Source of the DNA: Myxococcales bacterium
GTDB lineage: Bacteria; Myxococcota_A; Polyangia; Polyangiales; Polyangiaceae
Assembly (NCBI GenBank): GCA_016703425.1
Contig: JADJCA010000011.1
Span: forward strand, 250,050 to 314,049
Length of the DNA: 64,000 nucleotides
Reading direction: 5' to 3'
This document shows, piece after piece, positions 18,271 to 51,068 of this stretch. Below the pieces are notes generated by a model. It ran no database searches. It had not been told where the DNA came from and saw only the letters and a program-made list of their open reading frames with translations. How positions within the stretch are numbered: position 1 is the stretch's first letter; each line of letters starts with the position of its first letter. The translations under genes and the position numbers were made by a program.

Positions 18271-18449
18271 ACCGTGATGCTCACTCCGAAGCCCCCGAAG
18301 ATGCTGAGCCAGTGCGGCGACTCAAGGATTCACGACTAGACGGATGGTGGAAGGAAGAGAGCACCCAGAACGGCCCCCAGAGACGGCCGAACCGGGTGGC
18401 TCTCGCACTGCTATCGACACATTCTGGAGACGAATCGTCTGTTGAAGAC

Positions 18450-19210: not shown

Positions 19211-19225
19211 AGCTTCGCTCCTTCC

Positions 19226-21568: not shown

Positions 21569-21728
21569 TTTCTTTTCCAGTGGGTTTGGCGTCGTCTTCA
21601 GCGATGGGAAATAGGGCGAGCCGGTCAGCGTGCTCGTAGTCGCGCCCCCGCACGCTCTTCAGGAAGAGCAAGAGCCCGCCGACGACGAGCATCAGGCTCA
21701 CAAACACTTGCAGAATCAACACTTCCAA
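21558..21728 (-). CDS. ccoS: Candidate CcoS/FixS cbb3 maturation peptide
   Basis: Small ORF between ccoI and ccoNO. A TTG/GTG start at 21728/21722 overlaps the ccoI 3' end. Sequence LEVLILQVFVSLMLVVGGLLLFLKSVRGRDYEHAD resembles CcoS (TM helix followed by G-x-Y/F-DD/E). 56 aa. Confidence 0.4.
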   Translation of the reverse strand: MEVLILQVFVSLMLVVGGLLLFLKSVRGRDYEHADRLALFPIAEDDAKPTGKENGN

Positions 21729-24226
21729 AGTGGGCTCCGTGGACTGAGGGAAGCGACCGTGAGCAGAACGATCGAGAGCGAGCTCAAGGGCATCACCACG
21801 GCGCACAGGAGCGGCGTCATGAGACCGAGCGACGCGAGGAGCACCGTGAGGACGTTGTAGAGAACCGCGATGAGGAGGTTGCGGCGCGTCACGCGGCGAA
21901 GCGCCGCGGCTGCGGTGAGCGCCAGACGCACGGGCCGAAGGCCCGCTGTGGTGAAGTAGAGGTCGGTCTTCGCGGGCATGAAGGGACGATCGATGGCAGG
22001 CGTCGCCGACGCGAAGGCGCGCTCCGCCGCGAGCCCATCGTTCAGACCGTCACCGATCATGAAGGACCGCTCATGGTCCTCTAGCCAAGCGGCCTTGCCC
22101 TCGGGGGAGCGTTCGCCGATGGCACGCTCGAGCGGGACGTCGACGCGTTGCGCGAGCTCGTCGACGCGCGATTGCGCGTCGCCACTCAAGATCCAGACGT
22201 CGTAACCGGCGGCCTCGAGGGCGCCGATCTCGCCCCGCGCGTCGGGCCTCAGCGACTCGGCAAACTCGAACGCCGCGAGCACGCGCCCATCGCGAGAGAA
22301 GAAGACGTCACCGACCGAGTCGGCGCCAACGAACTCACGAGAGCCGAGTCGGTAGGTGTGTCCGAAGACCAGCTCCACCCCCGCGCCGGCGTGCTCCGTC
22401 ACCACGAGGTCGGCGCGGAGGCTGACCTTACCAAGGTGTCGTTCGAGCGCCTTCGAAAGGGCAACGCTCTTGGGGTGGGCGCTCCGCGCCGCCAGGTCGT
22501 AGAGCGCGCGCAGGTCGACCGGCTCGAGCGCCGCGAGCGAGGTGACGTCGGCGACGGCGAGGTCGCCTGTGGTGAGCGTGCCGGTTTTGTCGAAGACGAC
22601 ACGACGAACGTCCACGGCGCGATCGAGAAAGCTCGCCGATCGGACGAAAACGCCCGCGCGCCGCAGCCCTGCCTGCACGAACTCGTACGCCATCGGCGTG
22701 GCGATGCCGAAGGCGCAAGGACAGGTGACGACGAGCAGCGCCGTCGTCACTTCGAGGGCGCGCGTCAGATCGCGCGTCGCGTAGAGCCAAGCGGCAAAGG
22801 TAACCGCGGCCACGCCGAGGACCACGATGACGTAGACGCGCGTAAAGAGGCGCCACCAAGGCGTAGCGCGCGCCGCGTCGCGAACGCCAGCGCGCGGGCT
22901 GCGGAGGAGCGACAGGATGGGCGACGCGGCGAACGGCGAGAGGGCGCGGACGACGATGGCGCTCTGTCCAACGTTGAAGGCGCCAGCGTCGATGCGCTCG
23001 CCACGGCGAACCGCCCGCGGACTGCTCTCGCCGTTGATCCAATCAAGGGACACGCTCGCCGACTCCTCCTCGAGAGCGGCGGGCACAGGAACGAGGTCGC
23101 TCGGCGCAACGAGCAGCCGAGCGCCGGCGTCGACTTCGCTGCACGGCACGAGACGCACACCGCCGTCGGGGGCGATCATCCGCGTCAGGAGCGCGTCGAC
23201 GTCCCCCGTCAAGAGCTCGCGCCGGTTCCGCACGAGGACACGCTCCTGAAGGAACCGGCCCACGAGCATGAGCGCGATGAAGACGCTCACCGTGTCGAAG
23301 TACGCCGCCTTCCCGCCGCCCAGGAAGAGCGAGAGCGCGCTGCCCGTGTACGCGAAGACGATGCCGAGCGCGATGGGGACGTCGAGATGAAGGACGCGCG
23401 CCCGAAGCGCTTGCCAGGCGGATCGGAAGAAGACGGTTCCGCCCACGAGCACGCTCAACGTCGCGAGGGCGAAGTTGAGACCGTGAAAGAAGCGAAAGAT
23501 GGGCCCGCTCTCGAGGCCGGCGTAGATGGCGATGGCGAAGATCATCGCGTTCATCGCGATGGCGACCGTCACGCCGGTGCGCATCAGGAGGTCGCTCGTC
23601 TCGTGGACCTCTGAGCGTGCGGCCTCGTCGATGGGCCCGACGAGGTAGCCGAAGCGCTCGACTTGGGAAACGAAGCGGCTCACGTCGAAGCCGCGGTCGA
23701 CCGAAAGGTCCATCCGGCCGAGCGCTGGATTGACCGTGAGCGCGGCGCCCTTCCCTTGACGGCGGAAGAGCTCCTCGAAGAGCCATACGCACGCCGCGCA
23801 GTGGACGCCCTGCACCGACAACGCGACGTGGGTCACCCCCGACGGGGCGCCGGCGCGCTGGTCTTCGCACTCGAGGTCGGCCGTGAGCCGCTCCAGCCAC
23901 TTGTGGTCCTTCCGGCGACCCCAGGTCGTCACGGCGGAGCCTTTGCCACCACCGAGGGCGTAGTAGCGACCGAGCCCCTCGTTGGTCAGGAGCTCGTGCA
24001 CGGCTTCGCAGCCTCCGCAACAGAACGCGCTCGCCTGCCCCGCCGGAAGCCTCTCGTCGCAGTGCGCGCAACGCTCTCGAGAGCCCACGCTCAGTGCGGG
24101 AAAGACGCCGGACGAATCGCGGTCCCCCCCGAGAGGCGTAGCGGTCTCCACGGGCCGAGCCCGAGCAAACGACGTGCCGTAGAGTAAGGGCGCGGAAAGT
24201 CCGCGAAAAGGCCCCAATTCACGCAC
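21716..24226 (-). CDS. ccoI: Copper-translocating P1B-type ATPase CcoI/FixI
   Basis: P-type ATPase motifs: DKTGTLT, CPC (VVTCPCAFGI), MIGDGLNDGLAAERA hinge, and an N-terminal HMA-like GVHCAACV motif. Sits at the head of the cbb3 cluster. Confidence 0.8.
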   Translation of the reverse strand: MRELGPFRGLSAPLLYGTSFARARPVETATPLGGDRDSSGVFPALSVGSRERCAHCDERLPAGQASAFCCGGCEAVHELLTNEGLGRYYALGGGKGSAVTTWGRRKDHKWLERLTADLECEDQRAGAPSGVTHVALSVQGVHCAACVWLFEELFRRQGKGAALTVNPALGRMDLSVDRGFDVSRFVSQVERFGYLVGPIDEAARSEVHETSDLLMRTGVTVAIAMNAMIFAIAIYAGLESGPIFRFFHGLNFALATLSVLVGGTVFFRSAWQALRARVLHLDVPIALGIVFAYTGSALSLFLGGGKAAYFDTVSVFIALMLVGRFLQERVLVRNRRELLTGDVDALLTRMIAPDGGVRLVPCSEVDAGARLLVAPSDLVPVPAALEEESASVSLDWINGESSPRAVRRGERIDAGAFNVGQSAIVVRALSPFAASPILSLLRSPRAGVRDAARATPWWRLFTRVYVIVVLGVAAVTFAAWLYATRDLTRALEVTTALLVVTCPCAFGIATPMAYEFVQAGLRRAGVFVRSASFLDRAVDVRRVVFDKTGTLTTGDLAVADVTSLAALEPVDLRALYDLAARSAHPKSVALSKALERHLGKVSLRADLVVTEHAGAGVELVFGHTYRLGSREFVGADSVGDVFFSRDGRVLAAFEFAESLRPDARGEIGALEAAGYDVWILSGDAQSRVDELAQRVDVPLERAIGERSPEGKAAWLEDHERSFMIGDGLNDGLAAERAFASATPAIDRPFMPAKTDLYFTTAGLRPVRLALTAAAALRRVTRRNLLIAVLYNVLTVLLASLGLMTPLLCAVVMPLSSLSIVLLTVASLSPRSPLWKC

Positions 24227-25672: not shown

Positions 25673-25893
25673 GACACTCTCCTCTCGGGCGCTACCGGGC
25701 GATCTTGTCAGCAGCCTACGCCACATCGACGCGTTCGACCGGTGGCAACGTCTTTGCTTGTCGCAGAGCACGATGCCCCCTTCGCCGCGAAACGCTTCAA
25801 GCTTTCACGAACGTCGTGCGTCGTCGCGCAAAAGGCGCGCGGTCCCGCGGGGCCTGCTGAAGCAGCGCTCGGGCCGTCTTCTCCGAGGGGGCG

Positions 25894-28459: not shown

Positions 28460-29731
28460 TTGCGAATCGTCAGCGCCGAAGAAGCCGTCTCCGTCATCCG
28501 CTCCAACGACGCCATCTACGTGCATTGTGCAGCGGCCGCGCCGAACGTGCTCCTCCGCGCGCTCGTCGCGCGCGCGCCGGAGCTGACAGACGTTTCGATC
28601 ATCCACCTGCACCTCGACGGCGACGCCCCGCACCTTCGGCGCGAGGTCTCAAGGAGCTTCCGCCACAAGGCGCTCTTCATCGGACCGAGCGCTCGCGAGG
28701 CCGTCAACGAGGGGCGCGCCGAATACGTCCCGGTCTTCTTGTCGGACGTGCCGGCGCTCTTCCGAAGGCGGACGCTCGCGCTCGATGCGGTGTTCATCAA
28801 TGTGTCGCCGCCCGACGCGCACGGCTTCTGTTCGCTCGGGACGTCATGCGAAGCCATGCTCGCGGCGATCCCGGCTGCAACGACCGTAGTTGCGCAGATC
28901 AACCGCTCGATGCCCCGCGTGCTCGGAGACGGCTTCGTTCACGTGTCGAACATTCACCTGGGCGTGCTTGTCGACGAGCCGCCGTTCGAACATGCCGAAC
29001 CGGAACTCGGCGATGTGGAGCGGCGCATCGGCGCGCACGTCGCTGAGTTGGTGCCCAACGGCGCGACACTCCAGATGGGCATAGGGGCTATCCCCAGCGC
29101 CGTCGCGGCTTGCTTGACGGACAAACGCGAGCTGGGCGTGCACACCGAAATGTTCACCGACGCCGTCATGCACCTCGTCGAGGCGGGCGCCATCACCGGC
29201 GCGGCCAAGGAGGTCAACCGCGGCAAGATCGTCTCGGGCTTCCTCATGGGCACCAAGCGCCTCTACTCGTTCGTCGACGACAACCCGATGATCGAGATGC
29301 GCCCCGTCGACTACACCAACGACTCGACGCTGATTCGTCGCTTTCGAAAGATGATCGCCATCAACTCGGCCATCGAGGTCGACCTGACCGGCCAGGTCTG
29401 CGCCGACTCGATCGGCGCCCGCCTTTACAGCGGCGTCGGCGGACAAATGGACTTCATTCGCGGCGCGGCCATGGCGGAAGAGGGGCGCGCCATCATCGCG
29501 CTGCCGTCGACGGCGGCGGGCGGCAAGGCGTCGCGCATTTCGGCGTTCCTGAAGGAGGGCGCCGGCGTGGTCACGACGCGCGCGCACGTGCACACGGTCG
29601 TGACCGAGTGGGGCGTCGCCGAGCTTCACGGTCGCAGCCTTGCGGAGCGCGCGCGAGCGCTCATCGGCGTTGCGCACCCAGACTTTCGAGACGACCTCCT
29701 GGCGCGGGCGCGCCACACGCACACCCTGTAG
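28460..29731 (+). CDS. Acetyl-CoA hydrolase/CoA-transferase family protein (4-hydroxybutyrate CoA-transferase-like)
   Basis: 423 aa. The N-terminal EEAVSVIRSNDAIYVHCAAAAPNVLLRAL and C-terminal GGQMDFIRGAA...TEWGVAELHGRS stretches are characteristic of the Ach1/Cat1 family. Confidence 0.7.
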   Translation: MRIVSAEEAVSVIRSNDAIYVHCAAAAPNVLLRALVARAPELTDVSIIHLHLDGDAPHLRREVSRSFRHKALFIGPSAREAVNEGRAEYVPVFLSDVPALFRRRTLALDAVFINVSPPDAHGFCSLGTSCEAMLAAIPAATTVVAQINRSMPRVLGDGFVHVSNIHLGVLVDEPPFEHAEPELGDVERRIGAHVAELVPNGATLQMGIGAIPSAVAACLTDKRELGVHTEMFTDAVMHLVEAGAITGAAKEVNRGKIVSGFLMGTKRLYSFVDDNPMIEMRPVDYTNDSTLIRRFRKMIAINSAIEVDLTGQVCADSIGARLYSGVGGQMDFIRGAAMAEEGRAIIALPSTAAGGKASRISAFLKEGAGVVTTRAHVHTVVTEWGVAELHGRSLAERARALIGVAHPDFRDDLLARARHTHTL

Positions 29732-29879
29732 GTCGGCACGCCGTGGACTGAGCGCAAGGCGTGCGCGGACTTGCGCGATGCGCGCGCGCCCTCTGCGCAG
29801 CGGCCCTTGGTTTCGTGGCGTTTGCGCCTTGCCGAGGGGACGCGCCGCGACCGGCCCGTGCCTTGCACCGTCGGCCGCG

Positions 29880-30605
29880 ATGGCCCCGAAGCCCCGGCGT
29901 CCGCCGCCTCTCTCCACGCCTAAGAAGCCCGCCGTCGAAGCGACGCCATCCAAAGCGGCGATTCACGCGCGCGTGGCCGTCGACAACGCGGACGAGGTCG
30001 AGGTGGAGCGCGTGGCCTTCTGCCCCAAGCGCAAGCAGAGCGTCGCCGTTGGCGTGTGCGAAGGCTGCGTCCACTTCGAACACATCGGGCAAGACGAAGA
30101 CGGGCCGGTCGTTCATTGCGCTCCGCCGATGGCCGCCGATGGCAATCGCGCTCGTTTGGCGCGGAGCTTCGACCTCGGTGAGCTGGCGCTCCGGGTGCCG
30201 GTCGGCGAAGTCATGTCGCGCGTGGTGACCTGCGTGCGCCCGGAAACGCTGCTGGGCAAGGTTCGCAAGTTGCTCGTCGAGAACGGGGCCGCCTGCGCCC
30301 CCGTGATCAACGAGGACGGTTTGCTGCTCGGCATCGTCTCGGCGCAGGAGCTCTTGGCGGCACCAGACAGCATGAAGGCCGGCGACGCGATGTCGAGGGT
30401 CGCCCTCGGCATTCCGGAGGACGCGCCGCTCACACACGCTGTCGCAACCATGGCACAAGCACGCGCCCTCGCACTTCCTGTCATCGCGGGAGACGGTGAA
30501 GTGATTGGCTGCGTGAGCGCCCTCGACGCGATGCGCTTCTTCGGCCGTCGCTGGGGTTACGACATGTCGAGCGTCGAGCTGGAGTCTGCGGCGCCCGACG
30601 AGTAG
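29880..30605 (+). CDS. CBS-pair domain protein with N-terminal Cys/His cluster
   Basis: ORF 29640..30605; internal ATG at 29880. Two CBS repeats (VMSRVVTCVRPETLLGKVRKLLVENGAACAPVINEDGLLLGIVS; DAMSRVALGIPEDAPLTHAVATMAQARALALPVIAGDGEVIGCVS) follow CPKRK...CEGCVHFEH. Confidence 0.55.
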   Translation: MAPKPRRPPPLSTPKKPAVEATPSKAAIHARVAVDNADEVEVERVAFCPKRKQSVAVGVCEGCVHFEHIGQDEDGPVVHCAPPMAADGNRARLARSFDLGELALRVPVGEVMSRVVTCVRPETLLGKVRKLLVENGAACAPVINEDGLLLGIVSAQELLAAPDSMKAGDAMSRVALGIPEDAPLTHAVATMAQARALALPVIAGDGEVIGCVSALDAMRFFGRRWGYDMSSVELESAAPDE

Positions 30606-30846
30606 TCCGGCCTGCGTCGAGCCCATCTCGGTCACGCGACTGTGCACCACGCGTTCACTTCGCGGTGCGCGCGCGCGTCGACGACCCGTGCGCGACACTC
30701 GCACACGAGGCGCCTGTCTCGCCGAGGTGTCTTTGTATTCCATCCCGATCCAGTAAGAAGGTCTCCCACCGGTAATTTTTCACGCGGTGGCTCGAGAATG
30801 CAGCGCCTTCCCGAAGATCACCGGCCACCGGATCCATGGTGGCCGC

Positions 30847-30862
30847 TGGCACCAGACGTGCT
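30847..30862 (+). promoter_or_regulatory. Candidate sigma-54 (-24/-12) promoter upstream of the Gly-rich cargo gene
   Basis: TGGCAC-cagac-GTGCT gives GG-N10-GC spacing matching TGGCAC-N5-TTGC with one -12 mismatch. It lies about 115 nt upstream of ATG 30977 on the same strand. An FHA/sigma-54 activator is encoded at 49668..51068. Confidence 0.3.
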
Positions 30863-30976
30863 GAAGCCCAACTGACAGCGGAACGTAACGTGATGGGCTC
30901 GCGAGGGACGCGCCCGCTCATGCGTTCGCTGTTCGTGCCCGCGCCTTCAAGCGCGCGCAGATCGTTGGAGGAACGG

Positions 30977-32171
30977 ATGCGGTTTAGTGCTCGTCGCGCC
31001 ATAGAGCGCTCATGCTCGTTGGACGACCTCGACGACGTCCAGGGCGGATGCCATCACCCGAAGATCGAGGACAGCATCGAGATCGACAACGGTGGTCTAG
31101 GCATCTTCGGCCCCAACCAACAACCCTTCTTCGGCGGCGGCATCGGCGTCGGTGGACCTTCGCCGCTCGTCCCCGCGGGCAGCTTGCCCGTGAACGGCAT
31201 CGGTCCCAACGGCGGCCTCGGCGTGCTCGGCAGCGGGCTCCATGGGCCCAACGGCGAAGCCATCGTCGGCTTCGGTCCTCACGGCGAACCGCTCGGCGGA
31301 GTCGGTGGCGTTTTTGGGCCCGACGGTCAGGTCATCGGCGGCATTCCCGGTATGGGTCCGCTCGGAGGTTCACCCTTGAACGGCGCCGGTGTCGTGGGCG
31401 GCTCGCCGCTCGGGGTTGGCGGAGTCGGCGGCGTTGGCAACTTCGCTCCGAACGATTGGAATGGCGCGCTTCAGGCCGTTCATCAGAACGGCGCGAACGG
31501 CGGCGGTGCTGGCGTGGTCGGCGGCGTGGTCGGCGGCGTGCCTGGTGGGGGGGTCTTTGGTGCGGGAGGCAGCGCGCACCCGCTTGGCGATCTAGGTGCC
31601 TTTCGCGCCCAACGCTGGAGCGGGGTTGGGTGCCGCGGGAAATCCGGGAATGATGTACCCGCCCGGTAGCGGCATGGGCGCCGGCAACGGCGTGGGGCCC
31701 GGAGGTGGCCTCGGCGATCTCGGAGCCTTCGGCGTCGGCGGCGCGGGCGCTAACGGTGGAGTCTTCGGTCCGCTCGGCGTCGGTGCGAACGGAGGCGTCT
31801 TCGGCGCACCGGGCGCTCCCGGCGGAGGCATTCTCGGCGTCATCGGCGATCCGAACGGACTCGGCGGCGGCGTTGTGAACGCGGGCGGCATCTTCGGCAA
31901 CGGCGGAGCCGGCGGCGCAGGCGGCATCTTCGGTGCACCGGGCGCGCCCGGCGGAGGCATCTTCGGTGTCGGCGGCAACGGCGGCATCTTCGGCGTCGGT
32001 GCGAACGGTGGCGTGTTCGGTGCGCCGGGCACGGTGAACGGCGGCGGCGTGGGCGCGTCGGGCAACTCGTGGGACGGCTTCTCGCCGAGCAACGGCGTGG
32101 GCGCATCGGGCAACACGGGACTCGCGAATCCGTTCGCGGCGTACGCGCCGTCAGCGGCGATCCCCAAGTGA
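30977..32171 (+). CDS. Glycine-rich repeat protein with N-terminal double-glycine (GG) leader; candidate PCAT cargo; apparent +1 frameshift near 31596-31605
   Basis: GGAGGAA Shine-Dalgarno 5 nt before ATG 30977. Leader MRFSARRAIERSCSLDDLDDVQGG fits the LSxxELxxIxGG consensus (L-7, acidic -8/-9, V-4, GG-1/-2). The body is about 400 aa of GG(I/V)FG, GPNGG and LGDLGAF repeats. The frame-2 ORF (30836..31669) and frame-0 ORF (31596..32171) are both Gly-rich and share the LGDLGAF motif, so they form one gene interrupted by a single-base indel. Confidence 0.55.
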
Positions 32172-32327
32172 TCGAGGCGCGCGCGCTGTAGCGGCGGGCC
32201 CGCTGCGGCGCGCGCGAGCTTGGTCGCACAACCAGGAGCAACGCCTCGCGCTCACCGCGTCGAGGCAGTTTTCAAAGAAACCAGGCACGTCACGACGAGG
32301 CTTCCGAGAGCCACGAGAGACGCGGGA

Positions 32328-32380
32328 GTGTGGGACGGCGCCGCCCATCCACGGGGCGGGTTGGCGGCGTCGTCCCACAC
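32328..32380. repeat. 18-bp imperfect inverted repeat (stem-loop) between the cargo gene and tolC-like gene
   Basis: GTGTGGGACGGCGCCGCC, a 17-nt loop, then GGCGGCGTCGTCCCACAC; 17/18 complementary. No downstream T-run. Confidence 0.5.
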
Positions 32381-32603
32381 TTCCGCGTGTCGTCTCCACG
32401 CCGAGACAACGATCCGTCCTTGTACGGGTGGTTTCTCGGCGTGGATCATTTTGTCCTCTGCGAAGGCTTTCTTCTCGCAAAATTCGTAAGTCATTCTGTA
32501 CGCTTACATTATGCTACCGAGCCGCGTTCTCAGGTCCTTCTCGTGGGCCCTTCGTTTGCAGCAGTCGTGTGCAGTGTCTGCGAATTCAGCAAAATGGCTC
32601 GGC

Positions 32604-33971
32604 ATGCTCGGAGCGCTCGCGGTGTGCGCGACCACGAGCGTTGCGCGCGCAGAGACGCTGACGTTGGCTCAGGCGATCGAGATGGGGCTCTCGAAATCGC
32701 CGACCCTCCGCGGGGCGCGCGCTCGAACCGCAAGTGCCGACGCAAGTGTGACGGCCGCTCAAGGAGGCTATTGGCCGCGCTTCGACGGTACGATCACAGC
32801 CGGAAGCGGCTCGTTTCAACCCATGGCGCAGGGCGTAGTCACCGACACGAAGGCCACGGGTTTCCCGACCCAAACGAGTCGCTCGGTCCAGTACACCTAT
32901 GGCATTCGCGCCGAGGCCGGCCTCCGGTGGACACTTTGGGACTTCGGCAAGACCTCGAACAATGTAGGCGCATCGGAGGCAGGCCTCCGCGGAGCCGCGG
33001 CGAACGAAAAAGAGTCCGTGGCCCAGACCAGCGCACTAGTTGCTAACGCGTACCTCACGTTGTTTCATCAAGAGAAGTTGCTCGAAGTCGCCAAAGCCAC
33101 GCTCTCGTCGCGTGAGGACCTCTTCAAGATCGCCAAGGGCCTCGTCAAGGCGGGCATCCAGCCCCCCGTCGAGGAGCTCCGGTCCGAGGCTCGCTTCGAA
33201 GGAGCCCAACGCGATTTCGCGCGCGCTCGCGCCGAGGCCGAGCAAGCGCGGATGAGCCTTGCGATCGTCCTCGGCCACGACACCCCGACCGCACTGCGGG
33301 TCGTGACCCCGAAGCTGCCTCGCATCTCCCTCGAGCTCAACGCGGCGATGAAGGAAGCGGAGAAGCGCCCCGCCATCACCGCCGCCGAACAGGCCTACGA
33401 GTTCAACAAGAGCCGGGCTGACGCGACGATCGCGCAATACTTCCCCACCCTCTCCGCGCAAGGAACGCTGGCCTACAGCTATTCGGCCAGCGATCCACCG
33501 AGTGGCACGAACGTTCGCTTGGACCAAACCACGGAGCTGCGCAGCGGCACGGGCTCGATTGTCCTCGGCGGTCCGCTCTGGGACCCGTCGCAGAGCGCCG
33601 CCGTAGACAAGGCTCGCGCCGACGCCGCTGCCGCCGAAGCGAGCATCGACGACACGAAGCGTGACGTGAAGTCAGAGGCCGCGCGGTCCGCGATTCAGGT
33701 CAAGCTGGGCCAGGCGCAGCTCGAGCACGCTCGGCTCGCCGAAGAACGCGCGGGCCAGGTGCGCATGGTCATCGAGGAGCGCTACAAGCGCGGCCTCTCA
33801 AACCCGCTCGAGCTCATCGACGCCGAAGACTCGGATCTTTCGGCGCGCATCTCGCGCATTCAAACGGAGCTCGACTATCAGCTCGCCATCGTGCGCCTCT
33901 GCGTCGCGACGGGCCGACCCATCGTCGACGACGCGGACAAGCCCTCCAAGAGCTCGAAGGATTCGCCATGA
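32604..33971 (+). CDS. TolC-like outer membrane efflux protein (OMF)
   Basis: Internal ATG at 32604 gives signal MLGALAVCATTSVARA. Two OEP repeats with the typical pattern (LTLAQAIEMGLSKSPTLRGARA ... YWPRFDG ... QYFPTLSAQGTLAYSY). Confidence 0.7.
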   Translation: MLGALAVCATTSVARAETLTLAQAIEMGLSKSPTLRGARARTASADASVTAAQGGYWPRFDGTITAGSGSFQPMAQGVVTDTKATGFPTQTSRSVQYTYGIRAEAGLRWTLWDFGKTSNNVGASEAGLRGAAANEKESVAQTSALVANAYLTLFHQEKLLEVAKATLSSREDLFKIAKGLVKAGIQPPVEELRSEARFEGAQRDFARARAEAEQARMSLAIVLGHDTPTALRVVTPKLPRISLELNAAMKEAEKRPAITAAEQAYEFNKSRADATIAQYFPTLSAQGTLAYSYSASDPPSGTNVRLDQTTELRSGTGSIVLGGPLWDPSQSAAVDKARADAAAAEASIDDTKRDVKSEAARSAIQVKLGQAQLEHARLAEERAGQVRMVIEERYKRGLSNPLELIDAEDSDLSARISRIQTELDYQLAIVRLCVATGRPIVDDADKPSKSSKDSP

Positions 33972-34944
33972 GCGGGGGCGGCGCCGGTGACATGTTTCGC
34001 GCCGAAGCCGTGGCGCACCACGTCCAGGGCGTCCAGGAAGGCGACATCCTTCGCTACGACCACACGTGGACGCGTCACGCGTACACGCTCGTGGTCATCG
34101 CGTGCCTCGTCGGCTTCGCCTTCATCAGCATCTTCAGCGTCGACGAGTGGGCCACCGGCACATGCGTCGTCCGCATCGACGGTCGGCAGGTGTTGACCGC
34201 GAAGAACCCCGCGACGGTGGACACCGTTGAGGGCCGCACGGGCCAGGCCGTTGAACCCGGCCAGGTCATCGTCATGATGAACGCGCAAGAAGAGGCGAAG
34301 GAGTACGCCAGCGCAACGAAAGAGTTCGAGCTCGCCCTGGTGCGCATGATGCGCGATCCGAACGACGGCGAAGCGAAGGCCAACCTCACGAGCCTGAGGG
34401 CGCGCCGCGAGAGTTCGAAGACGGTTTTCGACGCTCGCCGCATCGTCTCGCCCATCTCCGGGACCATCACGGATGTGCGCGTTCGTCCGGGCCAACGCGT
34501 CAACCCGGGCGATGTCCTCGCGACCGTCGCGCCGAAGTCCGGCGGCTCGCAAGCCTCGATCACGGCCATCGTGCCCGCCGACTACCGACCCATGCTGGAG
34601 CCGGGCCAGAAGATGCGCTTCGAACTCGACGGCTTCCGCTACATCTACGCCGACTTGAAGGTGGAGGAGATCTCCGCCGAGGCTGTGGGTCCCACCGAGG
34701 TCATGCGCATGCTCGGCCAAGAGAAGGCCGACTCCGTCGCCCAAGACCGCGGCGCGAAGGTCCTCGTGTCGGCGAAGCTTCCGTCGTCCACCTTCACGTC
34801 GGAAGGCCAGGCCTTTGGCTATTTCGACGGCCTCACCGGCACCGCCGAGATTCGCGTGCGCCGTGAGCCCATCTTGGTGCTCCTCATCCCGGCGCTCCGC
34901 GCGCTCCTCCCCAACGAGGCTCTCGTGAAAATGCCGGGTGCATC

Positions 34945-34948
<4 letters not shown>
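33968..34948 (+). CDS. HlyD/CvaA-family membrane fusion protein (type I / peptide-bacteriocin secretion adaptor)
   Basis: ATGA overlap with tolC. N-terminal FRAEAVAHHV...W pattern (the CvaA-like FRxEA motif), then one TM, a coiled-coil and beta-barrel regions; 326 aa. Confidence 0.65.
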
Positions 34949-37733
<2,785 letters not shown>

Positions 37734-37755
<22 letters not shown>

Positions 37756-38102
37756 GCAGCCGGCCGCCGACGCCGAGTGCGCCGCCGCAGGGCGCGATGC
37801 CCGGTGCTGTCATCGGCTCGCGGCCGCCGCCGTCGCTTCACTTTGGCGACGAGCACGCGACCCTCGCGCGCGGGCCCAAGCCGCCGTTGCCGCCGCCCCG
37901 CGGCAGCACGCCGCCGGGCCAAAGCCGCGCGCCCACCGGAGCGCAGACGACGGCGGGCCGCGACGTGCGCCCACCGGCGCTCCGCGCCATCGGCGGCGGT
38001 GCCACGCCCGATGGCGGAGGGGCGCAGTTTGAGGCGGCCGACGATGCGCCGACGCTCAGCGAGAAACAGTTCGAGAACCTCTGGAGGTCGTCGGCCGGAT
38101 GA
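37734..38102 (+). CDS. Pro-rich 122-aa ORF; either a separate small protein or the frameshifted continuation of the PCAT tail
   Basis: It shares the PQGAM motif with the PCAT tail. The reading frame upstream of its ATG encodes AQERALAQAQMEAQQ (same style as the tail). Its stop overlaps the next gene start (ATGA). Confidence 0.3.
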
Positions 38103-39055
38103 AACATTCCACTCTTCTCAAGTTGGTCGGAATCGTGGCGACCGTTCTTGGGGCGCCGCTGCTCGGCGTCTTGATGACGCCCAAACGCGAGAACGTCGCG
38201 AAGGCCGAGGAGGCGCAGACGGAAGCGGTGACGTCGGCGACGGCGGCGGCCAAGCCCATTCCCACCAGCGATTTCGTCGGCGTGCTGCTTTCGCAGCAGA
38301 TGGCCACCATCTCGTCGTACGCCGACAGCCGCGTGATGTCGCTTGAGGTCAAAGTCGGTCAGCGCATCCACAAGGGACAGAAGCTCGTCGTCCTCGACCC
38401 TCGCTCGACGCAGCAAGAGCTCGAAGGCGCCAAGGGCGCGCTCGCCGCCGCCGGCGGCCAGGCCGGCGCCGCGGCCGCCGAGGCCCGCTTCGCGAGCCAA
38501 CGGGCCAACCGAAGAAACGAGACCATCGACCTCGGCGGCGGACGAAAGATGTCCCTCGTCTCCGGCGAAGATCAGGGCCAGGCGCTCTCCGACCGCGCCG
38601 CCGCAGCGGGACGTGCAGCCTCCGCGGCAGGCTCGATGGCGCAGGCGCGCGCACGGATCAAGCAGCTCGAGCTCGCCCTCGAGAACATGGAGCCGATGGC
38701 GCCCTTCGACGGCGTCGTGCAGCAGATCATGGTCGAGACCGGAACGACGATTCACAACGGCCAGCCGCTCGTTCGGCTCGTCGGTGGCCAAGGGCTGCGC
38801 GCAAAGATCGCGATCCCGGAGGAGGCCGCTGGCGTTTGGCAAGGCCGTCGACGCGCGCAGCTCGACGTCGACATTCAAGGCCAGACGCGCACATTTTGGG
38901 CGGTCATCGATCAGGTGGCCCCGGAGGTTGAACCGGCCTCACGCTCCTTCTTCATTGAGGGACCAGTACCGGTGACGCCAGAAATGTGCGGCGGCGATTG
39001 CGTGATGCTCGGTGGGCGACCTGTGAAAGCGAGCCTCATTTCCGACAAGGAGTGA
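38099..39055 (+). CDS. Second periplasmic adaptor / HlyD-family membrane fusion protein
   Basis: N-terminal TM (LLKLVGIVATVLGAPLLGVLM); biotin-lipoyl-like hairpin (MSLEVKVGQRIHKGQKLVVLD ... FDGVVQQIMVETGTTIHNGQPLVRLV); beta-barrel C-terminus. Confidence 0.55.
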   Translation: MKHSTLLKLVGIVATVLGAPLLGVLMTPKRENVAKAEEAQTEAVTSATAAAKPIPTSDFVGVLLSQQMATISSYADSRVMSLEVKVGQRIHKGQKLVVLDPRSTQQELEGAKGALAAAGGQAGAAAAEARFASQRANRRNETIDLGGGRKMSLVSGEDQGQALSDRAAAAGRAASAAGSMAQARARIKQLELALENMEPMAPFDGVVQQIMVETGTTIHNGQPLVRLVGGQGLRAKIAIPEEAAGVWQGRRRAQLDVDIQGQTRTFWAVIDQVAPEVEPASRSFFIEGPVPVTPEMCGGDCVMLGGRPVKASLISDKE

Positions 39056-39091: not shown

Positions 39092-40456
39092 GTGACGACC
39101 CGCGAAGCAGGCGCCCTGGTGGCAGGACGGTACCGGCTCGAGCGACCGCTCGGCGCCGGTGGGATGGGCGAGGTGTGGGTCGCGACGAACATCGTGACGT
39201 CGGGCCGCGTCGCCTTGAAGTTCTTGAAGCCCGAATACGCCAAGGTGCCCGATCTGCGGCTGCGCTTTGTGCGTGAGGCGCGCGCCGCGAGCGCCGTGAG
39301 TCACCCGAACATCGTCACGGTTCACGATGTGCTCGACCTCGACAGCGAGTCGCCAGTGATGGTCATGGAGCTGCTGCAGGGCGAGGCCCTGAGCGAGCGA
39401 CTCGCGCGCGAGCGAGCGTTGACGCTCGGCGAGGTCGCTCGCCTGCTCGTGCCCGCGCTCCACGGACTTCAGGCGGCCCATCGGGCCGGGATCGTTCATC
39501 GCGACCTCAAGCCCGACAATCTCTTCATCGTGCGGCATCCCGACGGGACCGAACAGACCAAGGTGCTCGACTTCGGCATCGCGAAGATGGTCGCCGCCGG
39601 CGAAGAGGACGTGGGAGGCGCGCTGACCAAGACGGGCGCCATGATGGGAACGCCCTATTACATGTCGCCGGAGCAGGCCTTCGGCGAAAAGAGCATCGAC
39701 CATCGCTCGGACGTTTGGTCGATGGGCATCATCTTCTACCAGTGCTTGACGGGCATCCTGCCTACGGAAGCGGGCAATTTTGGCCAGATCGTGAAGATCA
39801 TCACGATGCTGGGCATTCCTCCCATCGGCGAGCGCGCGCCGTCGTTGCCGTCTGACGTCGCCTCCGTCATCACGCGTATGTTGTCGCGCCTTGCCGCTGA
39901 CAGGCCCGCCGATCTCGCGGACGTGGCCGCCATCCTGCAACCCTACGGCTCGGGAAGCGTCGCCGACACCAAGTACGTCGTCGCCGTCGCGGGAAAGATG
40001 CCCTCGTCGGGGCAAGGTCGGGCGCTGACGGCGCCGAGCTCCAACGGCATGGCGGCGTCCCTCGTCGAGCCGCCCCTCGTCTCACGACGGTGGGCCTGGT
40101 GGTTGATGGGGGGCGTGGCCACGCTTAGCGCGGTCACGCTGGCTGTCCAGCAGCGCGGCGCCACGACGACCAGCCCCCTGCAGCCGCCCGCAAGCACGGC
40201 GCAAGTGATGGCCGCTCCACCGGAAGCGAAGACCATCATGCCGCTTGCGGAACTCGCTGAGCGAGACGCGAGCGCGCCCGATACCGGTGCAACGACGACG
40301 CGCTTGCCGGTTAAGCTCGTGGCCAAACCGGAGGCGACGCTCGCGTCACCGGTTCGACCGCAGGCATCGAACGCGCCCTCGCCGAAGGCAGCAGAGGGTG
40401 CGACGCCCGCTGGGAGCGGACGCGTGTCCGACCGCCTCGCGCCAGCGCCCTTCTGA
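39092..40456 (+). CDS. Ser/Thr protein kinase (active, Hanks-type) with C-terminal TM and Pro/Ala-rich region
   Basis: GAGGMGEVW glycine loop; VALKFL lysine; HRDLKPDNLF catalytic loop; DFGIAK; GTPYYMSPE. TM WWLMGGVATLSAVTLAV follows. Confidence 0.75.
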   Translation: MTTREAGALVAGRYRLERPLGAGGMGEVWVATNIVTSGRVALKFLKPEYAKVPDLRLRFVREARAASAVSHPNIVTVHDVLDLDSESPVMVMELLQGEALSERLARERALTLGEVARLLVPALHGLQAAHRAGIVHRDLKPDNLFIVRHPDGTEQTKVLDFGIAKMVAAGEEDVGGALTKTGAMMGTPYYMSPEQAFGEKSIDHRSDVWSMGIIFYQCLTGILPTEAGNFGQIVKIITMLGIPPIGERAPSLPSDVASVITRMLSRLAADRPADLADVAAILQPYGSGSVADTKYVVAVAGKMPSSGQGRALTAPSSNGMAASLVEPPLVSRRWAWWLMGGVATLSAVTLAVQQRGATTTSPLQPPASTAQVMAAPPEAKTIMPLAELAERDASAPDTGATTTRLPVKLVAKPEATLASPVRPQASNAPSPKAAEGATPAGSGRVSDRLAPAPF

Positions 40457-40468
40457 TACCTTTGCCCC

Positions 40469-41467
40469 GTGCGCGTCGCCACCGGCCTCTTCGTGTTAGC
40501 CATGACGCTCGCGGTGACGGGCGCCTCGGCGCAAGACGACGACAAGAAGACGCAGGCGCGCACCGAGTTTCAGCGCGGCAGCGAGCTCGCGAAGGCGGAG
40601 TCTTGGGCGGACGCACTCGCGGCGTTCCAGCACTCGCACGAGCTCTTGGCGCACCCAAGCACGCTCTTCAACATCGGCATGTGCGAGCGCGTCCTCGGTC
40701 GCTTCACGCGAGCGCGCGAGAACATGAAGCGCGCCCTTGCCGACGCGTCGCTACCGGCGTCCCTGGCCGAGGAGGCGCGCACCTATCTCGCGGAGATCGA
40801 GCGCCTCTTGGCGCACGTCGAGGTCGAGCTGTCGCCGGCCGAGGCCGGCATCGCCGTCGATGGGAGGCCGCTCTTTACGGAGACAAGCGCGGCGGGCGGG
40901 AGCGCGCCGGTGCTCATCGCTGGCCTTCGGCCGGCGGCGCCCGGCGAGTCTGCCCCTAGCAGCTCGTTTGAGCTCGTCGCCGACCCAGGGACGCGCGTCA
41001 TTGTCCTGTCTCGCAAGGGCTTCCGAGACATCGTTCGGCAGGAGCGCCTAGCGCCGGGCGCGCGGACGAAGCTGAAGCTGGAGCTCGAACGTCTGCCCGC
41101 CACCTTGCGCATCGAGGCCAACGTCGGTGCGGCGACCGTTCGCGTCAACGACGTCGATGTCGGCGCCGCGCCGCTTGAGGTCTCGCGCCCGGCTGGCATC
41201 TACCGCGTCGTCGTTCACAAGCCCGGGTTCGTGCCCCACGAGATGAACGTGACCGTCGGCCCCGGCGACGAGGCGAAGGTTGATGCCTCGCTCGCGGAAG
41301 AGCGCGTCCCGGTCACGAAGCGGTGGTGGTTCTGGGCCGGCGCGGCGGGCGTTCTGGCCGGCGGCGCCGCCCTAACGTACGCCCTCACGAGGCCAGAGCC
41401 CTCCCCTCCTCCCTACAACGGCGGCAGCACCGGTTGGGTCGTCGGTGGGCAATCGCTGCGCTGGTAG
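40469..41467 (+). CDS. Secreted PEGA-domain protein with TPR-like N-terminus and C-terminal TM anchor
   Basis: Signal peptide MRVATGLFVLAMTLAVTGASA; PEGA-like motif YRVVVHKPGFVPHEMNVTVGPGDEAKV; C-terminal TM WWFWAGAAGVLAGGAAL. Confidence 0.5.
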   Translation: MRVATGLFVLAMTLAVTGASAQDDDKKTQARTEFQRGSELAKAESWADALAAFQHSHELLAHPSTLFNIGMCERVLGRFTRARENMKRALADASLPASLAEEARTYLAEIERLLAHVEVELSPAEAGIAVDGRPLFTETSAAGGSAPVLIAGLRPAAPGESAPSSSFELVADPGTRVIVLSRKGFRDIVRQERLAPGARTKLKLELERLPATLRIEANVGAATVRVNDVDVGAAPLEVSRPAGIYRVVVHKPGFVPHEMNVTVGPGDEAKVDASLAEERVPVTKRWWFWAGAAGVLAGGAALTYALTRPEPSPPPYNGGSTGWVVGGQSLRW

Positions 41468-41468
41468 C

Positions 41469-42371: not shown

Positions 42372-42426
42372 CGGACGAAACGAGGGGCCTACCATCGCCG
42401 AGAAAGACTGGTATCACATCGAGTCG

Positions 42427-47156: not shown

Positions 47157-47795
47157 ATGGGCGATCGACACGCATATTGGGACGCCGTCTACTCCAAGAA
47201 GAGCCCGACCGAGGTCAGCTGGTACGAAGCGTCGCCGACGCGGTCCCTTGAGCTCATCAAGCGCGCTGGGCTCCCGCCAAGCGCGCCCATCATCGACATC
47301 GGGGGCGGTGCATCGACGCTGGTCGACGAGCTCTTGGCGCGTGGGCATCTTGACGTCACCGTGGTGGATGCAGCCCAGAGGGCGCTCGACATTGTGGCCC
47401 AACGCACGCGAGACCTGCGACCGAAGGGCAGCGCCGTGCACCTCGAAGTCGCTGACGTCACGGCCTTCGAGCCGCGGCGACGCTTCTCGCTTTGGCACGA
47501 TCGCGCGGTCTTCCACTTCTTGACGACCGCCGCCGATCAGGCGGCTTACCGACGCGTCCTTCTCGCGGCGCTCGCCGACGACGGCACGGCGGTGCTCATG
47601 ACGTTCGCCGAAGGTGGCCCCGAGACATGCAGCGGCCTGCCCGTCACACGATGGTCTGAGGCCGCGCTCGCCGCGTTCTTTGCGCCCGAGCTGTCCCTCA
47701 TCGAAAGCGGACGCGACGTGCACACGACACCGTGGGGCGCGCTCCAGGCCTTCACTTGGGTTCGCCTCGCGCGCCGGGCGGTTCACATGCCGTAG
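47157..47795 (+). CDS. Class I SAM-dependent methyltransferase
   Basis: Motif I IIDIGGGASTLVDELLARGH, acidic motif II VTVVDAAQ, motif III AVLMTFAEG; 212 aa. Confidence 0.6.
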   Translation: MGDRHAYWDAVYSKKSPTEVSWYEASPTRSLELIKRAGLPPSAPIIDIGGGASTLVDELLARGHLDVTVVDAAQRALDIVAQRTRDLRPKGSAVHLEVADVTAFEPRRRFSLWHDRAVFHFLTTAADQAAYRRVLLAALADDGTAVLMTFAEGGPETCSGLPVTRWSEAALAAFFAPELSLIESGRDVHTTPWGALQAFTWVRLARRAVHMP

Positions 47796-49408
47796 GGGTT
47801 CGGGTGAAGCTCGGGCCGCGGCGCCGGGGCTTCCGTCTTCGCGGGCTCCGGCGCGCGCTCCGGCTTCGCCTCCGCTTGCGGGTGCGGCGCGGGCTTCCCC
47901 TTGGGGCGGCCGCGCAAGACTTGTCGGCCTCCGGCAAAAGGCGCCGGCGTCGGACGAGGTGTCGCGATGACGGTGGGCTCCGCTTGTGCCGCGGCGGGGG
48001 CGGCCGGGGCCGGCGACGCATGGCCAGCACCAAACGGCAGCGCCTCGAGCACGGGCGTCGGCGGTGGGGCCGGCGGCGCCGGGGCGGCGATGGCCGTGGC
48101 CGCCGTCACCGGTGCCGAGGTCCCCGAGAGCACGAAGGGAATCGCCATCAGACCGAACATACCCACCGCGACGAGCGCCGCGAGCGCGACGCCGCGCTTC
48201 GGTCGACGGATCTTCTTGGCCGTCGCGAGCGAAGCTGCCGAGAGATCATCGAAGGGCAAGAGCGAGTCGGTCGTCGTGATGATCGGATCGATGGGCAGGC
48301 CGATGGGAATGAGGCTCGGCTCCGTCGCCGGCGCGTCGTCGGCCGTCAGCACGAACTCCGCCATCTGCGGCATGGGAACGATCGGCGGCAGCGTCAGCGT
48401 GTGCGCTTCGCCGTCGAGGCGCCCCGACGGCAATGGCGTCGAGCGGACGAGCGCAGGGCCCGAGGTCACCGCCGGCGTTGCCGTCGGCATTTGATTGACG
48501 ACCGCCGCGAGCCTTGGCGACGCGAAGGGCGCGAAGGCGCGCGCTAACTCGGCAGCGGACTGGTACCGCTCGTGCGGCTCGCGCGCGAGGCAACGATTGA
48601 TGATCGCCTCCACCGTCGGCGGGAGATCGGGGCGCACCTTGCTGAGGGGCGCGAAGCGGCGCTCGAGGACCGCGCAGAACACTTCACCGACCGATTGGCC
48701 GTCGAAGGGCAGGCGACCCGCGAGCAGCTGGTAGGCCACGATCCCCATCGACCAGATGTCCGTGCGGTGGTCCACCGAGCGCGCGTCACGAATGTGCTCG
48801 GGTGACATGTACGGAGGTGATCCGAGCATGCCGTCGCGCGACGTGGTGAGCGTGTGCTCAAACTCTTCTTGGCCACGCGCCTTCGAGATTCCGAAATCCA
48901 AGACCTTGAGCGTGTGACTACCGTCGGGGTTCGCGTGGTCGAAGAGGTTCGACGGCTTCACGTCGCGATGCACGACGCCGACTTGATGCGAGCACGCCAG
49001 CGCGTCACAGGCTTGAACGACGCAATCGGCGACGTCGCGGAGCCCGAGGGGCCCTTCGGCGCGGAGCCGCTTGCCGAAGTCCCGACCGCGGAGGCGCTCC
49101 ATCACGATGAAGGGTGTCTCTTCTTCCGGCGAGCTGACGGCGATGACCTTGACGACGTGCGTGCTGTTGATGCGGGAGACGGCGCGCGCCTCGCGGAAGA
49201 AGCGCTCGACCCAAACACGCTCCGACGGCGGCGAGAGGAGCAGCTTGATGGCGACGGCGCGGCCTGCCTCGTCGCGGGCCGCCACGACCCGTCCCATGCC
49301 CCCCGTACCGATGACACCCTCGACCTGATAACGACCCGCGATGAGCTCCCCGTCGCGCGGGGCGCTGGGATCGTGGCGTTCGTTACGGGCTTCGGCGAGC
49401 GATCTCAT
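47783..49408 (-). CDS. Ser/Thr protein kinase with Pro/Ala-rich C-terminal region
   Basis: GTGGMGRVV; AVAIKLL; HRDVKPSNLF; DFGISK; GSPPYMSPE. The C-terminal 230 aa are low complexity with one TM-like stretch. Confidence 0.75.
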   Translation of the reverse strand: MRSLAEARNERHDPSAPRDGELIAGRYQVEGVIGTGGMGRVVAARDEAGRAVAIKLLLSPPSERVWVERFFREARAVSRINSTHVVKVIAVSSPEEETPFIVMERLRGRDFGKRLRAEGPLGLRDVADCVVQACDALACSHQVGVVHRDVKPSNLFDHANPDGSHTLKVLDFGISKARGQEEFEHTLTTSRDGMLGSPPYMSPEHIRDARSVDHRTDIWSMGIVAYQLLAGRLPFDGQSVGEVFCAVLERRFAPLSKVRPDLPPTVEAIINRCLAREPHERYQSAAELARAFAPFASPRLAAVVNQMPTATPAVTSGPALVRSTPLPSGRLDGEAHTLTLPPIVPMPQMAEFVLTADDAPATEPSLIPIGLPIDPIITTTDSLLPFDDLSAASLATAKKIRRPKRGVALAALVAVGMFGLMAIPFVLSGTSAPVTAATAIAAPAPPAPPPTPVLEALPFGAGHASPAPAAPAAAQAEPTVIATPRPTPAPFAGGRQVLRGRPKGKPAPHPQAEAKPERAPEPAKTEAPAPRPELHPNPYGM

Positions 49409-49667
49409 GCGGGGGCGTAGACTCCTTCAAGCAACCGAGATGCCACGACGTCGGTCGCCAGGACCTCGATCCGAGGGCGGTTTTCTATTGTCTCCCAAGC
49501 GTGACGCGCCGTCGCGCCGCGTGCATGGAGAACCATCTATCCATGTACGACAATGGCGACTTTGTGCGCGAATATCTGCGAGATAGCCGCCTCGCGCTGT
49601 GGCCTAGGCGTTCACAACCGCCGTCTCCGAGCGCGCTTGCGACGTCTGCGAACCGTCGCGACCAGCC

Positions 49668-51068
49668 TTACATGCCGCCGGGCGGCGGCATGGTGCCGCC
49701 GGGCGGCGGATCGCTGGGACGAAGGCGCGCCATCATCCGGTAGAAGCTCGGGCGCGCGACGCCAGCGAGCTCGGCAGCGCGCGACATCACGCCGCTCGCG
49801 CGCTCAAGGACGCGCGGCAAGTACTGCTCTTCGAAGCGGTCGAGGACGATCTTCCGAGCCTCGTGGTAGGTGAGCGACGCGAGGTCGTCGTCAGCCGAGC
49901 GCGCGACAGCGCTCGCACGGTCGAAGAGTCCGCGCTCGCTGCCGAAGACCGCGTAACGCTCGACAACGTTGCGCAGCTCGCGGACGTTGCCGGGCCAAGG
50001 ATAGGCCGCGAGCATCGAGGAGAAGTCCGCGGGGAAGTCGGCGTTGGGGTCGCCCCGCAACGCGCGCAAGATGACGCGCGCGATGGGCAGGATGTCTTCT
50101 GTGCGGTCGCGAAGCGGCGGCACGGTGACGCGGGCCACGGCCAAGCGATAGTAGAGGTCGGTGCGGAACTCGCCGGTGCGCGCGCCTTCGGCGAGGCGCC
50201 GATTGGTGGCGGCGATGACGCGCACGTTCACGGGCTTCGGCGCGCGCGCGCCAACGCGACGAATCTCGCGCTGCTCAAGCGCGCGAAGGAGCTTGGGCTG
50301 GAGGTCGAGCGGCAATTCGCCGATTTCATCGAGAAAGATGGTGCCGCCGTCGGCTTCTTCGAACATGCCGCGGCGCGATTCCGTCGCGCCCGTGAAGGCG
50401 CCGCGCTCGTGACCGAAGAGCTCGCTCTCGACGAGGTTTGCCGGGATGGCGCCACAGTCCACAACGACGAACGGACCGTCATAGCGGGGCGAACGCTGGT
50501 GAATGCCGCGGGCGAGGAGGTCTTTTCCAACGCCGCTCTCACCTTCGATGAGCACCGTGAGGTCGGAGCCGGCGATGCGCTCAAGGTTGGCGAACATGTG
50601 CCGCATGACCGTCGACGAGCCGATGGCGTCGCCGAAGCGGTCGGCCTCGCTGAGCGGGAGCTCGATGGACTCCGGTTCGATCGAGATCTGGATGGTCGTG
50701 CCGCCGATGGTGATGGCGGTGTCTTGCGACAGCGTGGCGTCGCGCACCCGCATGCCGCCGATGTACGTGCCGTTCTTGCTCGTGTCCTGGAGCCGCGCGC
50801 CGCTCAAGTCGAGCAGGATGCGCAGGTGCTCACGCGACACGCCGGGATCGGAGATCCGAAGGTCGGCGGTTTGGCCCGAGCCGATGATGAAAAGGGGCCG
50901 GTCGACGCGCGCCGTGATCCCTTGTTCGGAGCCTTTGAGGATGCGAAGCGAGACGGCGCGCACTCGAAATGCGCTGGCGCTCGCCGCCACGGTTTGGGTC
51001 AACTCGGAGACGGGAGGCACGTCGGAAGTGTGCACTTTTTCTTCAGCCATAGCCAAACGCTCTTTCAT
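49668..51068 (-). CDS. FHA-domain sigma-54-dependent transcriptional activator (bacterial enhancer-binding protein)
   Basis: N-terminal FHA ([25 protein letters not shown]...[10 protein letters not shown]). AAA+ sigma-54 interaction domain ([15 protein letters not shown]; [15 protein letters not shown], the GAFTGA motif). C-terminal Fis-type HTH. Confidence 0.75.

Follow-up and report, generated by a model that had tools for sequence, protein, structure and literature searches.

We analysed a 64,000-nt stretch of Myxococcales bacterium contig JADJCA010000011.1 (assembly GCA_016703425.1, positions 250,050 to 314,049 of the forward strand), hereafter the window, in which the gene of a Gly-rich protein with a double-glycine leader (the cargo) precedes an export operon with a C39-peptidase ATP-binding cassette (ABC) transporter (Table 1). 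Upstream of the cargo gene lies a statistically non-random -24/-12 element of the sigma-54 type, TGGCAC-N5-GTGCT, in promoter position. With a probability of roughly 0.65, this element works as a sigma-54 (RpoN) promoter for the cargo gene and drives a single-gene transcript that ends at the strong hairpin in front of the export operon.

The element upstream of the cargo gene

A first-pass annotation of this DNA had drawn attention to the element and its GG-N10-GC core and had placed it about 115 nt before the cargo ATG, with no gene in between. The sequence bears out both the coordinates and the distance, which is 116 nt from the GC to the ATG. The 371-nt gap that holds the element (30606-30976) is non-coding, with a CBS-domain gene (29640-30605) on one side, the cargo gene on the other and no open reading frame (ORF) of coding character within it. 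The GG (30848-30849) of the element and GC (30860-30861) are spaced by exactly 10 bp, as is characteristic of sigma-54 promoters, the TGGCAC box is a perfect consensus, and the overall match to TGGCACG-N4-TTGCW is inside the range of validated promoters. Among the 89 compiled sites, 4 share its -12 box, GTGCT; precedents in validated promoters are Myxococcus xanthus mbhA (TGGCAT-gcgta-GTGCT), Klebsiella pneumoniae nifJ and Rhizobium leguminosarum glnII (S2 Table, PMC12316311). In its non-coding position, its orientation towards the downstream gene and its above-chance frequency, the element has the attributes of a sigma-54 promoter.

The transcription start predicted from standard sigma-54 geometry would leave an untranslated leader that carries a Shine-Dalgarno sequence. 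This predicted leader does not fold into a structure more stable than those of shuffled sequences (z = -0.28), and an Rfam search with it gave no family match. Likewise, a scan of 30400-32700 for sigma-70-type sites found none, which is weak evidence considering that the consensus used was of the E. coli type.

Table 1. Features of the window that bear on the cargo gene, its export and its possible regulation
Feature	Position	Strand	Basis and remarks
Inverted repeat overlapping the TGG of the -24 box	30819..30848	.	10/11 arm positions complementary
Sigma-54-type -24/-12 element TGGCAC-cagac-GTGCT	30847..30862	+	Read from sequence; sole exact match in window
Parts of this element	TGGCAC 30847-30852, spacer CAGAC 30853-30857, GTGCT 30858-30862	+	Sequence
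Predicted transcription start	30872..30874	+	Inferred from standard sigma-54 geometry (C of GC = -12, +1 at ~30873)
Predicted 5' untranslated leader, ~104 nt	30873..30976	+	Sequence; Shine-Dalgarno GGAGG 30967-30971
Cargo gene, first reading frame	30977..31669	+	ATG 30977; same start as and equal to database protein P0001 (230 aa)
Gly-rich cargo continuation in another frame	31596..32171	+	Apparent 1-nt frameshift near 31600-31640
Stem-loop with long, almost fully paired stem, between cargo stop and export operon	32320..32390	+	Folding
Outer-membrane factor, TolC-like	32511-33971	+	Pfam; export operon 32511..39055
HlyD-type adaptor	33968-34948	+	Pfam
C39-peptidase ABC transporter	34945-37755	+	Pfam PF03412, PF00664, PF00005
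Second HlyD-type adaptor	38099-39055	+	Pfam
Ser/Thr protein kinase directly 3' of the export operon	39092..40456	+	Pkinase, E = 5.6e-44
Ser/Thr protein kinase adjoining the activator gene	47783..49408	-	Pkinase, E = 9.6e-42
Stronger sigma-54 element TGGCAT-ctcgg-TTGCT	49430..49445	-	15.5 bits; shuffle P = 0.0005
Palindrome CATGGA-N10-TCCATG, ~80 nt upstream of the kinase promoter	49524..49545	.	Also L005 7705-7726
Enhancer-binding protein with FHA, AAA+ Sigma54_activat and HTH_8 domains	49668..51068	-	Pfam

An inverted repeat, CACCGGCCACC-N8-GGTGGCCGCTG, runs into the -24 box and is marginally non-random (P ~0.03 in shuffles of the region). It is possibly a regulator-binding site, e.g. an operator that occludes the promoter, or else a product of chance. 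One could go further and assign the TGG to a palindromic operator of a dimeric repressor or activator, which would then exert the main control and render the sigma-54 likeness incidental or secondary. The near-complete complementarity of the arms, the 8-nt spacer and the end of the repeat inside the -24 box would suit such an operator. Still, considering that the significance is only marginal and that the repeat leaves the correctly spaced GTGCT box unexplained, we regard this as quite improbable; moreover, the two readings are compatible, as a repressor could occlude a sigma-54 promoter.

The cargo N-terminus, MRFSARRAIERSCSLDDLDDVQGG followed by CHH…, consists of a double-glycine leader and then Gly-rich sequence. 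Inspected by eye, the leader (SLDDLDDVQGG before CHH) has hydrophobic residues at -4 (V) and -7 (L), as is typical of the cargo of peptidase-containing ABC transporters (PCATs), and a D at -8. The protein matched no Pfam family and, among 5.8 billion sequences, had no homologue except its own entry. In the window the gene is split between two frames, with the motif LGDLGAF occurring in frame 1 just before the switch and again in the second ORF, while on the syntenic P0002 contig a single gene encodes the orthologous cargo of 459 aa. An indel in the metagenome-assembled genome is the probable cause of the split, though the gene may also be a pseudogene.

The hairpin between the cargo gene and the export operon has a predicted free energy of -76.5 kcal/mol (z = -6.1; none of 200 shuffles as stable) and is not followed by a U-tract. 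It is likely to be a terminator, an attenuator or an mRNA-stabilising 3' structure, and would in this way make the cargo transcript monocistronic. Rfam ‘microRNA’ matches at this position were rejected, as they reflect merely a long hairpin.

Scores and chance expectation

The literal pattern TGGCAC-N6-TGCW occurs in one copy in the 64 kb, against 0.19 expected, and at least one copy arose in 18 of 100 shuffles. Because the literal pattern is not rare, a position weight matrix was built from 89 distinct GG-N10-GC sites (the Barrios 1999 compilation plus EcoCyc, S2 Table of PMC12316311). Matrix scoring had been proposed as a check in the first-pass annotation, and it came out in favour of the element, i.e. 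12.4 bits, which is within the validated range (16th percentile of the 89 compiled promoters) and ranks sixth in the window. Dinucleotide shuffles of the 371-nt gap reached this score on the plus strand in 0.5 % of 5000 trials (P = 0.005).

The window as a whole contains six sites of at least 12.4 bits, compared with 1.64 ± 1.15 in first-order Markov simulations, of which none in 100 reached six. Four of the six fall into promoter-position space, i.e. intergenic and no more than 300 nt upstream of a same-strand start, which accounts for 3.6 % of the (position, strand) space and in which ~0.06 such sites would be expected (binomial P = 2.5e-5). High-scoring sites as a class hence behave like real promoters, and the flagged site belongs to this class.

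The same figures bear on a chance match, in which case the cargo gene would be transcribed from a housekeeping or extracytoplasmic function (ECF) sigma promoter or by read-through from the CBS-domain gene. Such a match is made easier to believe by the 18 % of shuffled windows with the exact consensus pattern, by the low score among known promoters, by the failure to detect a terminator after the CBS-domain gene, and by the high G+C content of the genome (68 % in the window), since high G+C eases the formation of GG/GC-based motifs, a concern raised in PMC12316311. However, it sits poorly with the position-specific P value, with the four sites observed in promoter positions and with the similar elements before cargo genes in three other loci described below; the lack of a sigma-70-like site in the gap also speaks against it, though weakly, given the E. 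coli consensus. Overall, we consider coincidence unlikely.

Three further sigma-54-like sites were seen in promoter position elsewhere in the window. One of 15.3 bits lies before a short AraC-type helix-turn-helix (HTH) gene (15913-15930, minus strand). Another, of 15.6 bits, lies 135 nt before a receiver-domain gene that is followed by a hemerythrin gene (25742-25759, plus strand), and overlaps the 5' end of a divergent beta-CASP RNase gene. A third, of 12.5 bits, precedes the lysozyme-like gene ahead of the activator gene (51591-51608, minus strand) and is not conserved in L005, the locus compared below. The high-scoring site at 18572 (plus strand), antisense inside the CcoP gene, is probably due to chance; that gene belongs to an ordinary cbb3-type cytochrome oxidase cluster (16089-24226, minus strand) encoding a fused CcoN-CcoO, CcoP, FixG, a DsbD-like protein and a P-type ATPase.

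Analogous exporter loci

The transporter of the window combines an N-terminal C39 peptidase, a six-helix membrane domain and an ABC ATPase, with a conserved TDCGAACL motif, and is thus a PCAT; the gene order of its operon is shared with L007, L008, L089, L092, L094 and L096. We compared analogous, non-orthologous cargo genes in the loci of its nearest transporter homologues. Similar sigma-54 elements were found upstream of four further families of double-glycine cargo genes, in loci L092, L094 and L006.

In L092 (transporter 55 % identical), CGGCAC-ggcgg-TTGCA (13.9 bits) lies 87 nt ahead of the start codon in each of three double-glycine peptide genes, with an inverted repeat, CTGCAAC…GTTGCAG, ~150 nt further upstream. 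Because these three upstream modules are 96 % identical, they were counted as one event. A fourth element, TGGCAC-gcgga-CTGCA, which was recognised after the fact, precedes a short ORF that is likely to encode a peptide with a ‘…NLDAVSGG’ leader. In the same locus the exporter operon is directly followed by the gene of an FHA-type sigma-54 activator, and a Ser/Thr kinase is encoded upstream. L094 (56 %) has GGGCAT-gc[c/g]ga-CTGCA ~24 nt ahead of the start codon in each of two genes for YGGGG-rich double-glycine peptides. In L006 (62 %), a Gly-rich double-glycine cargo gene that is divergent from the exporter genes has CGGCAC-tgtcc-GTGCA, and CGGCAC-cacgg-TTGCA is present on the exporter side.

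When the empirical per-unit P values were combined by Fisher's method, six units gave 2.5e-4, and 2e-3 was obtained with the window left out. These values concern few loci and are set against a background of 3264 sequences of 300 nt, drawn from eleven of these loci as well as from the window, so that the null is a random sequence position and not ‘other genes’. Several candidates were set aside, i.e. the small proteins beside the exporters of L007 and L008 as double-glycine cargo, the L089 sites, which precede unrelated secreted proteins, and the site at 5910 of L003, which is inside a gene, judging from match offsets.

The only close syntenic contig, that of P0002 (29 kb, JGI sample 3300045391), encodes a transporter 86 % identical to that of the window. 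A contig scan with the outer-membrane factor returned only relatives of 24-38 % without synteny, an exact look-up of this protein had no match, and a two-sequence alignment scanned against metagenomes failed to recover the syntenic P0002 contig.

Beyond its ATPase, the transporter of the window carries a C-terminal tail of ~190 aa (37180-37755, residues ~745-936) rich in Gln, Ala and Pro. Its closest relatives, P0002, P0005, P0009 and P0029, are also 900-1020 aa long, while most listed relatives have ~730-850 aa. In L094 (1-4100), the two 100-aa YGGGG-repeat peptides adjoin a LanB-type lanthipeptide dehydratase, a sulfotransferase and the exporter operon; this Gly-rich cargo, analogous to that of the window, is possibly post-translationally modified.

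Exporter operons of the clade are repeatedly flanked by Ser/Thr kinase and FGE-sulfatase-domain genes (window 39092-45200; L007, L008, L092, L096), and these flanks may form a conserved accessory module. The window has two FGE-sulfatase-domain genes (42010-43863 and 43677-45200), and the kinase gene directly behind the export operon is followed by the gene of a TPR/PEGA protein, whose orthology to the TPR proteins of L005 and L092 was rejected on comparison. A sigma-54 activator is encoded within 10 kb of the exporter loci of the clade in 3 of ~8 cases.

The FHA-type activator and the kinases

The first-pass annotation had further described an FHA-domain enhancer-binding protein next to a Ser/Thr kinase and a second kinase directly after the export operon, and had linked these to the cargo gene in a route from kinase to FHA activator to sigma-54 promoter. 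The proteins are as described. The activator has the expected Pfam matches, including an AAA+ domain (PF00158, E = 2.2e-68) with a Walker A motif (GESGVGKD) and an intact GAFTGA motif (ERGAFTGAT), and a C-terminal HTH_8 domain that scores 22.3 bits against a cut-off of 22, in a region fully conserved in the orthologue (87 % identical overall) of locus L005, which comes from a related genome. In both kinases the HRDxKPxN, DFG and SPE motifs are intact, and the one adjoining the activator is 67 % identical to its L005 orthologue from the first residues.

Less secure is the premise that the FHA domain of this activator binds phosphothreonine, as FHA domains do in general. In residues ~60-70 of the protein, whose FHA domain spans residues ~40-135, Gly-Ser replaces the phosphothreonine-contacting Gly-Arg, i.e. 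‘IIGSGQTA’ in the activator versus ‘IIGRGQDA’ in Mycobacterium tuberculosis TB39.8 (PDB 3po8_A), and SREH and NG are kept. The L005 orthologue has the same substitution, and the domain scores at least as well on a YscD-type model as on the FHA model. Therefore, phosphothreonine binding by this particular domain cannot simply be assumed.

The better-supported sigma-54 promoter of the window is that in front of the activator-adjacent kinase gene. Its element lies in the 260-nt gap between the activator and kinase genes, 22 nt before the kinase ATG (49408), with a predicted leader of ~11 nt, and is conserved as TGGCAC-ctcgg-TTGCT in L005 (7796-7811). There, three other genes, which were rejected as cargo, are inserted between the activator and kinase genes, and the element before the kinase is kept nonetheless. 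The palindrome upstream is single-copy both in the window and in L005, where its relative position is the same, and is a candidate activator-binding site. Hence, the adjacent kinase gene is most likely a direct target of the activator, and the best supported one.

How far this extends to the cargo gene is another matter. In the full route proposed earlier, one of the two kinases would phosphorylate a partner or the activator itself, the FHA domain would read the phosphothreonine, and the activator would open the cargo promoter. Its three components do exist and look catalytically intact. In addition, the block of lipase, lysozyme, activator and kinase genes is syntenic in L005, where it abuts a C39-peptidase transporter 72 % identical to that of the window, and the FHA-type activator gene of L092 follows an exporter operon amid peptide genes with sigma-54 elements. 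FHA-type activators are also a recognised M. xanthus class in the account of PMC12288465, which cites Jelsbak et al. 2005 (PMID 15668379).

No sequence feature, however, supports the chain as such. The conserved palindrome precedes the kinase gene and, even with 2 mismatches allowed, has no copy near the cargo promoter, and a comparison of 11-mers between the cargo and kinase upstream regions and all intergenic regions returned GC-rich low-complexity matches only, so that no 11-mer is meaningfully common to the two upstream regions. Moreover, the activator gene is 19 kb away from the cargo promoter and on the opposite strand, and the Ser in place of the phosphothreonine-binding Arg and the equal match to the YscD-type model count against the FHA step. 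Nor do the analogous loci fully help: the L092 activator is not an orthologue, as it is only 38 % identical to that of the window, and the search for a cargo gene next to the L005 transporter, like that for a peptide gene in the gap between the L005 kinase and transporter genes, came out negative.

In myxobacteria, activators number in the dozens and such kinases about a hundred, for which reason the presence of an activator and kinases within 64 kb is weak evidence. All in all, the complete route is doubtful, and the activator of the window is a candidate regulator of the cargo promoter by genomic association only.

Weighing the probable promoter and a possible mechanism

Several observations weigh against a sigma-54 promoter at the cargo gene. 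The element deviates from the consensus, with G for T at -15 and C for G at -20, and its score falls in the lowest fifth of known promoters. Around 1 in 10 gene-upstream regions of the window has such a site, so that the data do not set cargo genes apart from other genes. A search of 30606-30846 for an activator-binding site, which would be expected ~80-200 bp upstream of the promoter, turned up nothing convincing beyond inverted repeats that are weak or marginal, and nothing in this region is shared with the kinase promoter region. Among the analogous loci, the elements of L006 (7.4 bits) and L094 (8.3-9.8 bits) are individually weak, and the cargo gene of L095 is without such an element. Finally, rpoN is absent from the 64-kb window, and the cargo gene is frameshifted in this assembly. 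The genome uses sigma-54, as an activator with an intact GAFTGA motif is encoded in the window.

The motif, its position and its statistical excess, together with the gene content and the analogous loci, fit the following course of events, in which the dependence on sigma-54, the start site, the hairpin's role and any input from a kinase are predictions. Sigma-54 RNA polymerase would bind the GG (-24) and GC (-12) boxes and remain in the closed state until an AAA+ enhancer-binding protein, bound upstream as a hexamer, uses ATP hydrolysis to open the complex. Transcription from the predicted start would then run through the leader into the cargo ORF and would mostly stop, or be stabilised, at the hairpin. 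The cargo would thus be made from its own tightly gated transcript, separate from that of the exporter operon, and the exporter would cleave the leader after Gly-Gly and secrete the cargo protein.

Relation to known systems

Sigma-54 promoters and abundant activators are well known in myxobacteria (PMC7910581; PMC12316311), and in M. xanthus it is established that sigma-54 controls genes for specialised products (PMC7910581). The M. xanthus promoters of mbhA, pilA and the natural-product genes MXAN1286, MXAN1579 and MXAN3778 resemble the cargo element in their GG-N10-GC core and their TGGCAC/T -24 box, and the -12 box of mbhA is identical to that of the cargo element. The host, too, is a high-G+C myxobacterium rich in activators, and as with the M. 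xanthus natural-product promoters (PMC7910581), a specialised secreted product would be controlled. In contrast to these cases, the product here is a double-glycine protein exported via a peptidase-ABC transporter and not a polyketide, a non-ribosomal peptide or the product of a pilus gene.

The activator of the window has the same domain order as the M. xanthus FHA enhancer-binding proteins (Jelsbak, Givskov & Kaiser 2005), i.e. FHA, AAA+ with GAFTGA and a Fis-type HTH, with an adjoining kinase gene. It differs from them by the Gly-Ser in place of Gly-Arg, in the window as in L005, its likely target is the adjacent kinase gene, and it has no known link to development.

Among PCAT double-glycine and class II microcin or bacteriocin loci, the Gly-Gly leader, the C39 peptidase with Q…DCG, the HlyD-type adaptors and the TolC-like factor are all familiar, and there, likewise, a hairpin separates the structural gene from the export genes. 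Known PCAT systems, however, are regulated by quorum-sensing two-component systems, Rgg regulators or iron, whereas sigma-54 control is proposed here. Furthermore, the cargo is Gly-rich and has ~400 aa instead of being a short peptide, and the Gln/Ala/Pro-rich tail of the transporter is unlike known PCAT systems.

To a specialist, one predicted promoter by itself is no surprise in a phylum in which sigma-54 promoters abound. What is mildly new is the recurring pairing of sigma-54 elements with the double-glycine cargo of peptidase-ABC exporters; a full-text literature search found no report linking sigma-54 with peptidase-containing ABC transporters. That Polyangia-type myxobacteria generally express double-glycine PCAT cargo, both bacteriocin-like peptides and Gly-rich proteins, from sigma-54 promoters, with FHA-type activators turning these on and integrating Ser/Thr-kinase signalling, is a tentative generalisation, and we would sooner expect it to fail than to hold. 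If true, it would place a eukaryote-like phospho-signalling gate on secreted-peptide production, which is undescribed for this export family.

If the site works, it would provide a handle on when an uncultured myxobacterium makes an orphan Gly-rich secreted protein. Since sigma-54 promoters are silent until a specific activator fires, the cargo would then be made solely on a defined signal. Such elements recur before unrelated double-glycine peptides in several related genomes, at times alongside Ser/Thr kinases or an FHA-type activator, and suggest that bacteriocin-like products are habitually regulated in this way across the clade, which could guide the heterologous activation of silent peptide loci, e.g. 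by a constitutively active activator.

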